A stretch of 64,000 bases of DNA from Candidatus Latescibacterota bacterium (GCA_965203355.1 OZ241889.1:3040001-3104000); one strand, 5' to 3'. Counted from the first letter of the stretch, positions 56,661-62,434 are shown. Translations and numbers: made by a program. The notes: a model not told the origin generated them from the letters alone.

Positions 56661-56843
56661 ATGAAAAAGCGCATCATCAGCTTAACCATTGGCCTCACGG
56701 CCTTTATCGCCAGTTTCCTGCCGCAGAAGGCCGAAGCCTTTTGGTGCGAAGCCAATTGCGATAACGGTTGGTGCTTCGCAATCGGTCCGAACTATAAGTG
56801 CGATTGCGACGCAGACGGGAACGCGGTATGCACTCTCGCCTAA
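56661..56843 (+). CDS. secreted 6-Cys peptide precursor 1
   Basis: AAGGAG RBS. MKKRIISLTIGLTAFIASFLPQKAEA|FWCEANCDNGWCFAIGPNYKCDCDADGNAVCTLA. Confidence 0.8.
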   Translation: MKKRIISLTIGLTAFIASFLPQKAEAFWCEANCDNGWCFAIGPNYKCDCDADGNAVCTLA

Positions 56844-56936
56844 CCAGCCTTCAGGAGCGGCTGGCCTAAGCCACTCAACCCCCAACCCAACGCGCCCCGG
56901 AATAGTCGCTTAAACGCCGCTATTCCGGGGTGACCT

Positions 56937-57100
56937 ATGGCGGGCGGGTATCTGGCCAGATCCGCTTCTGCCCGCCGAATTAGTCTTGCGACTTTCACGA
57001 GCGTTATGGCAAAGTGCAGCCCGACGAGGTAGCCGAGCTAGAAGCCCTGCTGACGCGGCATCCGGCTTGGGCAACCGAGCCATGCGCCTTGCACCCATAA
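56937..57100 (+). pseudogene. duplicated 3' remnant of the GT2 gene
   Basis: Matches about 54355-54528 with a small deletion and marks the start of repeat unit 2. A shorter remnant lies at about 60001-60104. Confidence 0.7.
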
Positions 57101-57114
57101 ATAGGAGCCGATCC

Positions 57115-58752
57115 ATGATAGGCATTGTGTTCAAAAAAGAGATGCTCAGCCACCTGCTGAGTCAGCGCTTCGCCGCCTGCACCGCCCTCGCCGTGGTGCT
57201 CATCATCGCCAACGGCATGCTGACCAGCCAAGCCTATGTCCACAAAAAGGCCAGTTACCTAACCCAACGCGCCGTCGAGGAAGCCAAACTGCCCGAAATC
57301 ACCTACTATGCGGTCCTAGGCTCAGACAAGAACAGCTCCAGCAAGTCGCCACTCGAGGACGATGCGACCCCGCGTGCGCTACGGCCTCCGCGGCCCCTCG
57401 CGGTGTTTGCCGAAGGCGTCGAACCCGAAGTTGGGCACGCCGTCAAGGTCCTGCTCTTTGAGGTGCCCCACCAAACCGAGGCCATTGTCCCCTTCCAGTC
57501 AAAAAACCCCTATCTCAACATCTTCGCCTCCTTCGACACCTTGTACATCTTCCAACTCGTGCTGGGGCTGCTGGCCATCCTCATCGCCAGCGAGACCGTC
57601 TCCGGCGAGAAGGAAGACGGCACCCTGCGCCTGATGCTGACCACTAACGTCAGCCGCGCCCAAGTCCTCGCGGGCAAGCTGCTGGCCGGCCTGACCACCT
57701 TGGCCATTCCCGCAGCCTTGGGCTTTATCCTGCTGACGATCTTGCTGTTGGGCACCGAGCAGATTGAAGTTGGGCTGGACGTGTGGCTACGGTTGGGGCT
57801 GCTGTTCGCGCTGTCGCTTTTGTATCTGCTGGTGTTCTATCTGATTGGACTGGTCATCTCCTGCGCGACGCACCGCTCGGCGACCAGTTTGATTTACGCG
57901 CTGTTTATGTGGGCGGTGCTGGCGATTGTGCTGCCCGACAGCATCACGGCCTGGCTCAACGAACAGGCCAACATGGGTGAAAAGTACAAGCAGGCGCACC
58001 ACCGCGCCGCGCAAATATGGGATAAGTTCGATCAGGAGGTCCTTGACCTCACGCGGGCGCAGGGCCCAACCCCGACGACCAAAGCGGCTGGCGAGGACGA
58101 TATGACCCTTGGCCCCATGGGGATGTTCGGCCAGAATCGGTATCCTCCCATACACATGCTCGAACGGTTCATACAACCCCGCTACGGAGCCGCAACCACC
58201 GTTGTAACCCATGGCATATACTATTTAAGAAATGGGCAGAAGCCACGGATTTATCTCTCTGGTATCGTCGATACGCCGGCCCTGGCCGAGTTCCAAGCCA
58301 TCATCCGCACCGGCGAGCGGCTGCGCCTGAAATACGCCCAACCCGCTTGGAACGCCAAAGCACCCCTCATCGAAGACGACCCCCGACGCATCCAACGATG
58401 GAATACCTACCTACAACGCCTCCTGCCCGCCGGAGCCTATGCCCAAGCCGCCAGTGCATTCGCCGGCACCAGCCGACGCGAATACTACGACTTTATCGAC
58501 CAAGTTCGCACCTATCGCGGGCAGATTATCACTTTTCTCGAAGAGCGCGATGCCTTTGGCTCCCGCGAGTGGTTCAACGACGACGACGGCTGGCGGGCCG
58601 ACCTACGCGACCTGCCGCGATTTAACGAGCGCGGCTGGACCGTCGGCCAAAGTCTGAGCCACGCCTGGCCGGACTTAACCGCCCTATTGCTGTATGCCGT
58701 CGGCCTCTTTGTCTTGGCCAACCGACTCTTTGCCCGCTACGACGCCCAGTGA
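57115..58752 (+). CDS. ABC-2-type permease, copy 2
   Basis: Near-identical to copy 1 except in two loop windows. Confidence 0.85.
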   Translation: MIGIVFKKEMLSHLLSQRFAACTALAVVLIIANGMLTSQAYVHKKASYLTQRAVEEAKLPEITYYAVLGSDKNSSSKSPLEDDATPRALRPPRPLAVFAEGVEPEVGHAVKVLLFEVPHQTEAIVPFQSKNPYLNIFASFDTLYIFQLVLGLLAILIASETVSGEKEDGTLRLMLTTNVSRAQVLAGKLLAGLTTLAIPAALGFILLTILLLGTEQIEVGLDVWLRLGLLFALSLLYLLVFYLIGLVISCATHRSATSLIYALFMWAVLAIVLPDSITAWLNEQANMGEKYKQAHHRAAQIWDKFDQEVLDLTRAQGPTPTTKAAGEDDMTLGPMGMFGQNRYPPIHMLERFIQPRYGAATTVVTHGIYYLRNGQKPRIYLSGIVDTPALAEFQAIIRTGERLRLKYAQPAWNAKAPLIEDDPRRIQRWNTYLQRLLPAGAYAQAASAFAGTSRREYYDFIDQVRTYRGQIITFLEERDAFGSREWFNDDDGWRADLRDLPRFNERGWTVGQSLSHAWPDLTALLLYAVGLFVLANRLFARYDAQ

Positions 58753-58855
58753 GCGGAGGCAGAAAGGAGGGAACGCTTCAACACATCGTCTCAAGTGCTT
58801 CACCCCGGCGATCACCGCCTTGACCACTCAGCAAGCCAGAGCAAAGGAGAGCATC

Positions 58856-59035
58856 ATGAAAAAGCGCATCATCAGCTTAACCATTGGCCTCACGGCCTTT
58901 ATCGCCAGTTTCCTGCCGCAGAAGGCCGAAGCCTTTTGGTGCGAAGCCGATTGCGATAACGGTTGGTGCTTCGCAATCGGTCCGGGCGCCAAGTGCTATT
59001 GCAACGCAGACGGGAACCCGGTATGCAATTCCTAA
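58856..59035 (+). CDS. secreted 6-Cys peptide precursor 2
   Basis: Same leader. Core FWCEADCDNGWCFAIGPGAKCYCNADGNPVCNS. Confidence 0.8.
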   Translation: MKKRIISLTIGLTAFIASFLPQKAEAFWCEADCDNGWCFAIGPGAKCYCNADGNPVCNS

Positions 59036-59153
59036 CCAGCCTTCAGGAGCGGCTGGCCTAAGCCACTCAACCCCCAACCCAACGCGCCCCGGAATAGTCG
59101 CTGAAACGCCGCTATTCCGGGGCCACTCAACCCAAACTCAGAAAAGGGATAAA

Positions 59154-59975
59154 ATGAAAACGTTGCTTTTCACCCTAAGCACCGCTTGGTTGGCCACCAG
59201 CGTCGCAGCCGAGCCGAAAGCCCAGTACGGCGGCTACTCCTTCACCGACCCCGCCAGCATCCAAGCCTCTATCCAAGCCTTTTCAGCCTATGTCAACAGC
59301 TTGGAGATGATAAACGTCGAGGCCGGCGACCCGTTGCAGCAGGCCATCGCCGCCATCCCCGTCAAGGCAAGCACCCCCATCACACCCGCCCAAGAAGCCG
59401 ACCTACGCACTTGGCTCTACGACTTCTTAGTCGCTTTTTCGGGGGCCAGCAGCGACAGCCTCGCCGCCGCGTTCTACCTTCGCGAGGGCGTCAACAACCC
59501 CGAACAGATAGAGAAGTTAAAAAACGATCTTGCAAACAAGGGCCTCCTACAAGGCGATACGCCTTTTGACATCCTCAAAGCCGGACACCGGCAACTCCTC
59601 GACAAGAATGGATACGATTACTACTTCGGCAAGGTATCCTTTGCCAACAGCGCGTTTGAGGTGGCCGAAAGGCAGACCAAGCTCAGCCCTTATATCAGGT
59701 ACCTCGTGGAGAACGGCATGATTCCACCCGGGAGCGTGTACAGCAACGAGTCCAAAATGAAGAGCGAGGTTCAAGATCACCTCCAAGCTGGCCAACCGCA
59801 GACCTTGGCCGAGGTCATGCTCATCGTCGAAGAGCCCGAGGAAGTTGCCGCCCTAGAAGGGGCGCACATCCCGTTCTTCTTTCGCATGGCTTGGGACCCA
59901 AACAAGGCTATGTGGCGCCATGTAGAGGTCGTTTACTGCCGCGGGACATCGTATTTTCTGTTCCCTTACATTTAG
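59154..59975 (+). CDS. exported protein, family A paralog 2
   Basis: Signal peptide MKTLLFTLSTAWLATSVAA followed by family A motifs. Confidence 0.8.
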   Translation: MKTLLFTLSTAWLATSVAAEPKAQYGGYSFTDPASIQASIQAFSAYVNSLEMINVEAGDPLQQAIAAIPVKASTPITPAQEADLRTWLYDFLVAFSGASSDSLAAAFYLREGVNNPEQIEKLKNDLANKGLLQGDTPFDILKAGHRQLLDKNGYDYYFGKVSFANSAFEVAERQTKLSPYIRYLVENGMIPPGSVYSNESKMKSEVQDHLQAGQPQTLAEVMLIVEEPEEVAALEGAHIPFFFRMAWDPNKAMWRHVEVVYCRGTSYFLFPYI

Positions 59976-61756: not shown

Positions 61757-61774
61757 GCGGAATCCTATAACCAT

Positions 61775-61808
61775 AAAGCGGGCAGCCATAGACCGGCTGC
61801 CCGCTTTT
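61775..61808 (+). terminator. intrinsic terminator after permease 3
   Basis: aaagcgggcagcc-atagacc-ggctgcccgctttt. Confidence 0.7.
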
Positions 61809-61899
61809 GTGTGCCCAGCCACCCCGTTCCCGCCACGTCAAGCAGCAAAGCCTGTCCCCAGCAAGGGCGGCCGGCTAGCGAGACCTGCTCGGCACGTCA

Positions 61900-61959
61900 T
61901 GCGATGTTTAGACGCACTAAGCGCGACATTTAGACGCACTTGTGCGATGTATTGTCGCA
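61900..61959. promoter_or_regulatory. three phased palindromic boxes, set D
   Basis: Boxes at 61900, 61922 and 61943, as in set C. Confidence 0.75.
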
Positions 61960-62091
61960 CTTTTGGGCCGTCAAAGGGCCGGGCAAGAAGCACGAAAGAC
62001 GATGGTAAAATTTATTTCACTTTCCATAAACTACTATTTAACAATATCTTATGGTTTAGACGCGGCGCGATTGTCATCCACTGGCAACGCC

Positions 62092-62108
62092 TTGGCATGA
62101 TGTTTGCA
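62092..62108 (+). promoter_or_regulatory. sigma54 promoter D (peptide 3)
   Basis: TTGGCATGATGTTTGCA. Confidence 0.8.
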
Positions 62109-62254
62109 TTATATCGTACCGAAGCAAGAAACTTCACACTCATCCGCCGGGGCAGAAAGGAGGGAACGCCTCAACACATCGTCATCGTCTCAAGTGTTTC
62201 ACCTCGGCGATCGCCGCCGAGACCACGCATCAAACCAGAGCAAAGGAGACCATC

Positions 62255-62434
62255 ATGAAAAAGCGCATCATCAGCTTAACCATTGGCCTCACGGCCTTTA
62301 TCGCCAGCTTTCTGCCGCAGAAGGCCGAGGCTTTGGCGTGCTTTGCCAAGTGCCCTAATGGTTGGTGCTTCGCAATCGGTTCGACAGTTGAGTGCGATTG
62401 CGACGCATACGGGAACCCGGTATGCAATTCCTAA
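62255..62434 (+). CDS. secreted 6-Cys peptide precursor 3 (not in ORF track)
   Basis: Translated by hand: MKKRIISLTIGLTAFIASFLPQKAEA|LACFAKCPNGWCFAIGSTVECDCDAYGNPVCNS. AAGGAG RBS. Confidence 0.8.
   Translation: MKKRIISLTIGLTAFIASFLPQKAEALACFAKCPNGWCFAIGSTVECDCDAYGNPVCNS

Follow-up and report, generated by a model that had tools for sequence, protein, structure and literature searches.

Sec-dependent, disulfide-containing bacteriocins and microcins with dedicated ATP-binding cassette (ABC) immunity or export genes are a known class of secreted peptides. In the conotoxin-type superfamilies, the signal and the cysteine framework are conserved, the loops are hypervariable and multiple paralogues occur. 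Here, we analyzed one 64,000-nucleotide (nt) stretch of Candidatus Latescibacterota bacterium DNA (GCA_965203355.1 OZ241889.1:3040001-3104000; the window hereafter), which contains three genes for short secreted microproteins, each composed of one conserved leader and one core with six cysteines. Like the members of the bacteriocin and microcin class, the products are predicted ribosomal, secreted peptides; they are encoded beside ABC-2-type permeases, in multi-copy cassettes and with variable cores. Different from that class, the cores are anionic, no immunity protein family was identified in the cluster, and control appears to be of the sigma-54/two-component type. With the conotoxins they share the conserved signal and framework, the hypervariable loops and the paralogues; the likeness is one of evolutionary pattern only, as conotoxin genes are animal venom genes and include a propeptide. 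The closest described export route is that of the Escherichia coli heat-stable enterotoxin STII, which has a Sec signal, acquires its disulfides in the periplasm and is then expelled by MacAB-TolC, as described in PMC5985334.

The initial annotation had placed three genes with six-cysteine cores in the window, and their coordinates (Table 1), plus-strand orientation and framework all match our open reading frame (ORF) calls and six-frame scan. Over the whole 64 kb, the framework C-x3-C-x4-C-x8-C-x-C-x7-C occurs in exactly three places. The 26-residue leader ending in AEA, MKKRIISLTIGLTAFIASFLPQKAEA, is protein-identical in copies 1, 2 and 3, as had been claimed; its nucleotide identity between copies 1 and 2 was found as well, and copy 3 is four synonymous changes away. 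In all three copies, AAAGGAG is located 6 nt upstream of the ATG. All the amino-acid changes that had been listed for the cores of the first two copies were found (N>D, NY>GA, D>Y, D>N and A>P), with TLA>NS at the C-terminus as an additional one. Over the 31 codons up to the last Cys, with the TLA>NS end excluded, Nei-Gojobori counting gave 8.0 non-synonymous and 1.0 synonymous differences; the synonymous unit arises from path averaging in one doubly changed codon. Around these cores, copies 1 and 2 are nucleotide-identical over about 100 nt of 5′ leader plus signal, and identical again in the 3′ flank. Copy 3 is 59 amino acids (aa) in length, just below a 60-aa ORF cut-off, whereas the open frames around copies 1 and 2 extend to 72 and 113 aa, which is probably why copy 3 was left out of the ORF track. 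Since homologues in other genomes keep the six cysteines (28 of 28 aligned rows), the genes are more than chance, and on sequence grounds we take all three to be real. The core of copy 1 also contains one DxDxDG-like acidic loop (D-C-D-A-D-G, 56802-56819) between C4 and C6, which is partial in copies 2 and 3 (YCNADG and DCDAYG, respectively) and presumably recalls calcium-binding loops.

To define the family, we searched 5.8 billion clustered proteins, which returned 12 family proteins of 45-60 aa, and ran one profile search against 1.84 billion representatives, which returned 23 matches at E<=0.001. Family matches are present in 14 of the 167 Candidatus Latescibacterota species genomes, with 1-6 matches per genome; the family therefore marks one clade. 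The scan of genome contigs gave 13 loci, 11 of them titled Latescibacterota or Latescibacteria. One locus (L001) is titled Gemmatimonadota, yet it is syntenic, and its neighbouring proteins are 74-93% identical. Another (L013, Ruminococcus) was rejected as a member; the match covers the leader only, lies within a 339-aa ORF and was treated as a chance likeness between signal peptides. The six cysteines are invariant in all 28 aligned cores and no other position is; family-wide, the framework reads C-3-C-(4..24)-C-(5..12)-C-1-C-(5..7)-C. AAAGGAG or one near variant precedes the ATG in 19 of the 21 family genes. The distant members (P0028, P0031-P0033 and P0035) carry the same module behind unrelated signal peptides. 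P0028, a 424-aa protein matching no Pfam family, contains two six-Cys modules, each located after a signal- or membrane-like hydrophobic stretch and before an Ala-rich region of about 130 residues; the module is thus found within larger proteins as well. When P0033 was used alone to scan for the genomic context of distant relatives, only one unrelated locus (L014) was returned, matching the C-terminal tail alone.

Pfam and NCBIfam contain no model matching the precursors. The literature on Latescibacteria cysteine-rich peptides, sponge-associated Latescibacterota and bacterial EGF-like (epidermal growth factor-like) or disulfide-rich secreted peptides, supplements lying outside the search, does not describe the family. 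The excerpted text of PMC12993501, on sponge-associated Latescibacterota, reports antiSMASH classes and nothing resembling these peptides. Within the databases and texts covered, the family is previously undescribed and specific to one Latescibacterota clade.

By inspection, the leader is an ordinary signal of the Sec/signal peptidase I form. It is composed of one basic n-region (MKKR), one 16-residue hydrophobic core (IISLTIGLTAFIASFL) and PQKAEA, followed by F or L; Pro is located at -6 and Ala at -3 and -1, and no lipobox is present. For a signal, it is unusually conserved: pairwise protein distances average 0.19 in the leader, compared to 0.49 in the core. The comparison of selection on leader and core, which had been proposed as a dN/dS check, gave a clear contrast. 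The ratio of non-synonymous to synonymous divergence (pN/pS) is about 0.2-0.3 in the leader and about 1 in the core, with comparable synonymous divergence in both. Between copies 1 and 3 there are 4 synonymous and 0 non-synonymous differences in the leader and 1.8 and 16.2, respectively, in the core (Fisher p=0.002). These ratios indicated that the leader is under purifying selection. Since six core codons are fixed as Cys and the core-wide ratio is still about 1, the loops seem to change faster than neutral, or to be at least unconstrained, the peptide sequences being too short for a formal site test of selection. One diversity-generating retroelement was considered as the source of the core differences and rejected; the substitutions are not adenine-specific, and no search was made for a reverse transcriptase. 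Taken together, the Sec-type leader, the six invariant cysteines and the pN/pS contrast support what had been proposed: secreted microproteins rich in disulfides, whose leader is conserved and whose core diversifies.

The AlphaFold2 model of the 33-residue core of copy 2, built with the 28-row alignment, has a predicted local distance difference test (pLDDT) score of 95.4. It contains no helix and four β-strands (residues 2-7, 10-15, 20-23 and 29-32); the cores are confidently predicted to be all-β, four-strand miniproteins. Bacterial cis-defensins are likewise secreted peptides with three disulfides and with CxxxC and CxC motifs; the survey of helix-containing peptides in PMC11561630 places them in Proteobacteria, apart from single ones in Acidobacteria and Actinobacteria, and its main text does not mention 'Latescibacter'. 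That class needs one α-helix bearing the CxxxC, whereas the model here is helix-free and its CxxxC sits in strand 2-7. On this model, the cysteine-stabilised α/β defensin fold was therefore ruled out, although both motifs are present.

The EGF-like fold was examined in several ways. Foldseek search of the PDB with the 33-aa core gave no match at E<=0.001, the best E being 2.1; such a short query has little power in structure searches, and the result is therefore indecisive on the fold. Among the 46 sub-threshold rows (E 2-10), 10 were EGF-like, follistatin-FS or laminin-EGF pieces and 2 were pacifastin inhibitors; some of the EGF-type rows superpose with a root-mean-square deviation of 1.2-1.6 Å over 16-18 columns. 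The structure prediction and structure search that had been proposed as a check thus gave a confident all-β model, yet no significant match, with EGF-type hairpins appearing only below threshold. The profile search of PDB sequences with the core returned no EGF protein, only one chance phycoerythrin row (E 1.3), and the best score in the ESM Atlas search, 0.80, was uninformative. One weak pacifastin-type row (E 0.17) was found among the Pfam results of the cores.

The likeness to EGF that had been pointed out in the initial annotation appears in the cysteine pattern, whereas family membership is not supported. The spacing of the window cores, 3/4/8/1/7, appears close to the EGF consensus, and CxNGxC is present. 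Pfam EGF models matched 0 of 28 cores at E<=10 and 0 of 3 precursors at E<=0.1, HMMER filters discarding most matches above about 0.1; none of the 51 family sequences matches the EGF signatures C-x-C-x2-[GP]-[FYW]-x4-8-C or C-x-C-x5-G-x2-C of PROSITE. Like the EGF-like domain, the core is an extracytoplasmic, all-β module of about 30-35 residues with six cysteines, apparently similar loop lengths and CxNGxC. Different from it, the core matches no hidden Markov model or signature and no solved structure significantly, and it is a bacterial peptide that stands alone behind its Sec signal instead of forming one module of a larger eukaryotic protein. Members with other cysteine numbers bear on the connectivity. 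Both C5 and C6 are missing in the four-Cys members P0016 and P0026, which fits a C5-C6 bond, but these genes may be truncated. In the eight-Cys member P0032, the extra cysteines are located two residues before C4 and two after C6, which fits the hairpin register of the last two strands in the model.

Sigma-54 promoters have GG-N10-GC elements with the consensus TGGCAC-N5-TTGCW. TGGCAC-N5-TTGC was found at -145 to -193 in 18 of 21 family genes from the window and related loci; the exceptions are window copy 2, L005:1054 and L010:14434, the last with a degenerate site. The window contains four such promoters (Table 1), and each has one pair of 17-bp repeats 183-192 nt upstream, spaced 21-22 bp apart. 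The repeat matches eight times in the window, all in these four pairs, and 0 of 100 shuffles reached eight. The same promoter and paired upstream sites stand before the glycosyltransferase (GT) operon and before copies 1 and 3. The histidine kinase, predicted to hold an extracytoplasmic Cache domain between two membrane segments, and the response regulator, which has the Sigma54_activat domain, adjoin the cluster also in L001, L002 and L009. The promoters, the paired sites and the nearby activator indicated that the peptide genes, the GT operon and the gene for the secreted 265-aa protein are one predicted sigma-54 regulon. Copy 2 lacks its own promoter and follows closely on permease 2; presumably, it is read through from the copy 1 promoter.

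Table 1. Positions of the peptide genes, neighbouring genes and regulatory features, counted from the first letter of the window
Feature	Position	Strand	Remarks
Microprotein copy 1	56661-56843	+	60 aa: 26-aa Sec signal and 34-aa six-Cys core; ORF, translation, homologues
Microprotein copy 2	58856-59035	+	59 aa; start 104 nt past permease 2 stop, without own promoter
Microprotein copy 3	62255-62434	+	59 aa; ORF, translation
ABC-2/DUF3526 permease paralogue 1	54495-56168	+	Pfam PF12679, E 4e-28
ABC-2/DUF3526 permease paralogue 2	56986-58752 (homology from 57067)	+
ABC-2/DUF3526 permease paralogue 3	60071-61756	+
SecB273, secreted 273-aa protein	59154-59975	+	No Pfam family; model possibly NTF2-like
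SecB273 paralogue	62553-63377	+
More distant SecB273 paralogue	49242-50039		265-aa secreted protein
More distant SecB273 paralogue	63490 to window end
GT1-transglutaminase fusion	50931-53441	+	Heads operon running into permease 1
GT2	53428-54528	+	Same operon as GT1-transglutaminase
Cache/HAMP/PAS histidine kinase	45019-47196	+	Directly upstream of cluster; Pfam
Sigma-54-dependent (NtrC-type) response regulator	47199-48602	+	Sigma-54 interaction domain E 7e-71
Sigma-54-type promoter TGGCAC-N5-TTGCA	56505-56520	+	156 nt upstream of copy 1 ATG
Sigma-54-type promoter TGGCAT-N5-TTGCA	62093-62108	+	162 nt upstream of copy 3 ATG
Sigma-54-type promoter AGGCAC-N5-TTGCA	49191-49206	+	Before secreted 265-aa protein gene
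Sigma-54-type promoter, identical to that at 49191	50866-50881	+	Before GT operon
Pair of 17-bp direct repeats GCGAYNNTTAGWCGCAC	56313-56351	+	Putative activator-binding site, 192 nt upstream of copy 1 promoter
Same 17-bp repeat pair GCGAYNNTTAGWCGCAC	61901-61939, 49008-49045, 50683-50720		Upstream of the other three promoters
Strong hairpin without U-tract after copy 1	56893-56932	+	z -4.0; 0/200 shuffles folded as well
Same strong hairpin after copy 2	about 59086-59123	+	z -4.7; 0/200 shuffles folded as well
Terminator-like hairpin and TTTTGTGT after permease 1	56190-56224	+	z -5.9
Terminator-like hairpin and TTTTGTGT after permease 3	about 61778-61812	+	7-nt loop inverted

The hairpin that follows copies 1 and 2 has one 13-14-bp stem. 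Past the stop, the aligned 64 nt of 3′ flank are the same in all three copies; they cover just the first 6 nt of the stem, and the same hairpin is expected after copy 3. It may be a transcript-stabilising or attenuating element that favours the peptide message. In the two terminator-like hairpins, the 10-bp stems are identical, whereas the loop reads GGTCTAT (56200-56206) after permease 1 and its exact reverse complement, ATAGACC (about 61788-61794), after permease 3; the difference looks like an inversion across the palindromic stem, and the variant also turned up as a loose end among the sequencing-run contigs. Rfam search of 48000-64000 found no RNA family, only one chance snoRNA row (E 0.72). 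Among the sequencing runs searched, none was listed as RNA; the one run presumed to be RNA gave no match to the locus, the DNA contigs break at the repeats, and two runs labelled 'sponge metagenome' contain a share of only 0.14, from which we draw no habitat conclusion. Two small genes on the minus strand, 48681-48914 (77 aa) and 50335-50589 (84 aa), lie within duplicated regulatory repeats, which stand upstream of the SecA-type gene and of the GT operon. Their product is coiled-coil-like at the N-terminus and has one membrane segment at the C-terminus; a 7-residue repeat is inserted in the longer copy. The gene has no Pfam match and is present in L002 and L009 too.

The genes of the cluster are arranged in repeated cassettes. 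The kinase and activator genes are followed by one small reverse gene, the gene of one SecA-type protein, the second small reverse gene, GT1-transglutaminase and GT2; then come permease 1 and peptide 1; permease 2, peptide 2 and one SecB-type protein; and permease 3, peptide 3 and one SecB-type protein. The last gene, for another SecA-type protein, is truncated where the window stops. Related loci again show the permease gene followed by those of the peptide and the SecB-type protein, and the order GT1-transglutaminase, GT2, permease, peptide is conserved. In L003, one cassette (17200-17834) keeps the promoter region and the 3′ flank between the permease and SecB-type genes and contains neither a peptide ORF nor any family match, which points to loss of the peptide gene there. 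Apart from the cluster, G+C content is 0.40-0.46 at window positions 1-6000 and 12001-14000, compared to about 0.60 elsewhere, and these parts may be foreign or island DNA.

The permeases belong to the ABC-2 group by their domain scores: PF12679 gave 98.9 bits (cut-off 27.2) and PF12040 (DUF3526) 27.7 (cut-off 25). NCBIfam showed weak likeness to MutG (lantibiotic immunity, E 1e-4) and PmtD (export of phenol-soluble modulins, 2e-3), far below the cut-offs. Literature found for DUF3526 and ABC-2 was unrelated, dealing with a motor-skills test. The permease paralogues are 93-94% identical, with the differences clustered at residues 82-104 and 347-399; when six membrane segments are counted by hydropathy, both of these patches probably lie in the two large periplasmic parts. 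Like the permeases, the SecB-type paralogues are very similar to each other (90% identical), and most of their differences are located at residues 173-210. Across genomes, the mean distances are 0.48 in the permease patches versus 0.12 in the rest, and 0.53 in the SecB patch versus 0.30 in the rest; that of the peptide core is 0.49. Within the patches, the pN/pS ratio is about 1; outside them, it is 0.15-0.20.

GT1-transglutaminase is 75-85% identical in the six related loci that contain the whole gene; L004 holds part of it. Its composition, one macrolide-type GT1 part with one C-terminal transglutaminase-core (cysteine-protease-like) domain, is an unusual fusion. GT2 matches generic GT2 entries only, and the GT1 part matches only small-molecule (macrolide and enediyne) glycosyltransferases. 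Both enzymes are without membrane segments or signals and are predicted to be soluble and cytoplasmic. In L009 the cluster goes on, with one second, distant ABC-2/DUF3526 permease (479 aa), DUF1573, TPR and NEW3-domain proteins, one TolC-like outer-membrane protein and one ABC ATPase. The second permease is found in 11 of 12 related loci, the TolC-like gene in three (L001, L007 and L009) and the ATPase in two; the other loci end earlier.

We also predicted complexes of mature SecB273 with the core of copy 2. The score was 0.46 (0.35, 0.46 and 0.63 in separate runs), and the best of three controls scored 0.00. The runs agreed in at least 91% of contacts, with a partner pLDDT of at least 77. Of 80 solved complexes, 58 reach the mark used for such predictions, as do 2 of 110 mismatched pairs; at scores of 0.60 or below, just 7 of the 80 and both passing mismatches do. 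Read on that scale, the model weakly suggests that SecB273 may bind the peptide.

What do the peptides do? We tentatively favour, as a possibility rather than a probability, diversifying secreted effector peptides handled by the ABC-2 and TolC-like machinery of the cluster. The local Cache-type histidine kinase and NtrC-type activator would turn on the sigma-54 promoters of the peptide genes, the GT operon and the secreted-protein gene. The precursor would cross the inner membrane through Sec, be cleaved after AEA and fold oxidatively in the periplasm. There, the ABC-2/DUF3526 permeases, together with the ABC ATPase and the TolC-like protein, may take it up and either send it out of the cell or keep it away from the membrane of the producer. 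Its binding partner may be the putatively NTF2-like secreted protein whose gene follows directly. Outside, the peptide would act on other cells, most likely as a bacteriocin-like competition effector; arrays of divergent copies fit such an antagonistic role. The inter-cysteine loops would diversify while scaffold and signal stay conserved. This export logic, composed of Sec, disulfide bonding (DsbA) and an ABC transporter with a TolC-type channel, is modelled on the STII/MacAB-TolC route as described in PMC5985334. Different from that route, the peptides are unrelated to STII in sequence, the permease is of the ABC-2/DUF3526 kind, no MacA-like adaptor was found and export is proposed by analogy. 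The permeases carry the ABC2_membrane_2 and DUF3526 domains, and the proteins downstream in L009 include no adaptor; the transporter would resemble MacAB-TolC in working at most and is not a member of that type. In sum, the analysis establishes the genes, the family, the scaffold, the promoter and regulon, the cassette architecture and the hypervariable patches; the route of export, the binding partners and the target are inferred.

Several observations weigh against this proposal. Most cores are anionic (net charge -6 to +1 over 16 cores), whereas antimicrobial peptides are typically cationic. The permease is of ABC-2 and not of MacB/FtsX type, no membrane-fusion adaptor family was identified among the window proteins and the L009 downstream proteins, and the TolC-like gene and the ATPase are known from related loci only, the window ending before that point. 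The matching of peptide and partner within a cassette is also in doubt. Core distances track partner distances, but no more closely than they track the conserved parts of the partners. With the rest of each partner protein controlled for, the partial Mantel correlation of core distance was r=-0.007 with the permease patches (p=0.49, 12 cassettes) and r=-0.02 with the SecB patch (p=0.56, 14 cassettes), in a test of low power with distances near saturation. As no residual co-variation was seen, one cognate peptide-partner relation or matched co-evolution is not demonstrated. The permease and SecB patches were picked after viewing the alignment, and their synonymous divergence is raised too (pS 0.13-0.25, compared to 0.06-0.08); mosaic recombination or escape from gene conversion therefore explains them as well as positive selection does.

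Other explanations account for parts of the same evidence. The promoter and upstream sites of the regulon on the peptide genes would also suit an autoinducer, sensed by the Cache domain of the kinase so that the activator drives the peptide's own promoter in a positive feedback loop for sensing of quorum or kin, with the transporter and SecB-type proteins acting in export or uptake. The Cache domain is predicted to be extracytoplasmic, between its two membrane segments; anionic, non-amphipathic cores suit one ligand better than one membrane-active toxin, and the core diversification resembles pherotype divergence. However, several divergent copies per genome (three here, 1-6 matches per species genome) beside one kinase are unusual for a pheromone system, and the kinase is 77-84% identical between genomes whereas the cores are about 49% different, and we consider such a circuit unlikely. 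The tight interleaving of peptide and permease genes would suit a peptide that never leaves the periplasm and serves the ABC-2 machinery there, be it as subunit or plug, as inhibitor (of a protease, for instance) or as metal-binding factor. The actual cargo of the machinery would then be another compound, such as a glycolipid or polysaccharide made by the GTs. The presence of the GTs in the same regulon, the acidic loops with the DxDxDG-like motif of copy 1, and the weak pacifastin-type matches (one Pfam row at E 0.17 and two Foldseek rows) agree with that. A structural subunit, however, would not usually diversify so fast in its loops or come in several divergent copies, and since the L003 cassette has kept its promoter without the peptide gene, that permease copy can do without the peptide; a role of this kind appears decidedly unlikely.

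For mimicry of the host, in which EGF modules with 1-3, 2-4 and 5-6 bonds would serve as ligands or decoys for eukaryotic receptors, the apparently near-EGF spacing, CxNGxC, the four-strand all-β model and the 10 of 46 sub-threshold Foldseek rows can be cited. Against these stand the 0 of 28 cores matching Pfam EGF models and 0 of 51 sequences matching the PROSITE signatures, the Foldseek and PDB-sequence searches without significant or EGF matches, the distant relatives, which carry the module behind other signals and for which no host link is shown, and the gene context, which is that of a bacterial envelope transporter; we regard mimicry as highly improbable. A broader combination, in which free-standing, hypervariable ligands on an EGF framework are controlled by the sigma-54 circuit, exported by a new ABC-2/DUF3526 and TolC-like pump, matched, each variant to its own permease loops and NTF2-like binding protein, and used on host receptors or as a kin code, seems very unlikely to hold as a whole. 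The least credible explanation, and a remote one, is modification of the peptide: GT1-transglutaminase and GT2 would recognise the leader, and one product like glycocins or other ribosomally synthesised and post-translationally modified peptides (RiPPs) would be exported by the ABC transporter. It draws on the promoter and upstream sites that the GT operon has in common with the peptide genes, on a leader more conserved than the core, as in RiPP precursors, and on the conserved order from GT1-transglutaminase to peptide. But the leader is of Sec form, with its 16-residue hydrophobic core and AxA and without the double-glycine site of glycocins and class II bacteriocins, and it is unrelated to the signals of the distant relatives. 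The permeases contain ABC-2/DUF3526 domains only and no C39 or other peptidase domain, and among the entries listed for the GTs, generic GT2 or small-molecule GT1, none is named a peptide S-glycosyltransferase. Being without membrane segments or signals, the GTs would also reside in a compartment different from that of the folded, Sec-exported peptide.

A Sec-exported disulfide peptide beside an ABC transporter is already known as a kind; the scaffold, the sigma-54 regulon and the cassette architecture with ABC-2/DUF3526 permease and putatively NTF2-like protein are new. To our knowledge, no Latescibacterota have been cultured, and their dealings with neighbours or hosts can be seen only through gene clusters of this sort. 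The locus described here is a small system amenable to testing, in which sensor, activator and promoter are defined and a putative binding site is at hand. Its 33-residue scaffold is confidently predicted, yet it matches no solved structure or curated family, and the candidate partner proteins carry localised hypervariable patches. If the cores had EGF connectivity, they would be rare free-standing bacterial ligands of the EGF type. If the peptides are exported effectors, they would represent a new disulfide-rich scaffold and give the uncharacterised DUF3526 ABC-2 transporters a new role.

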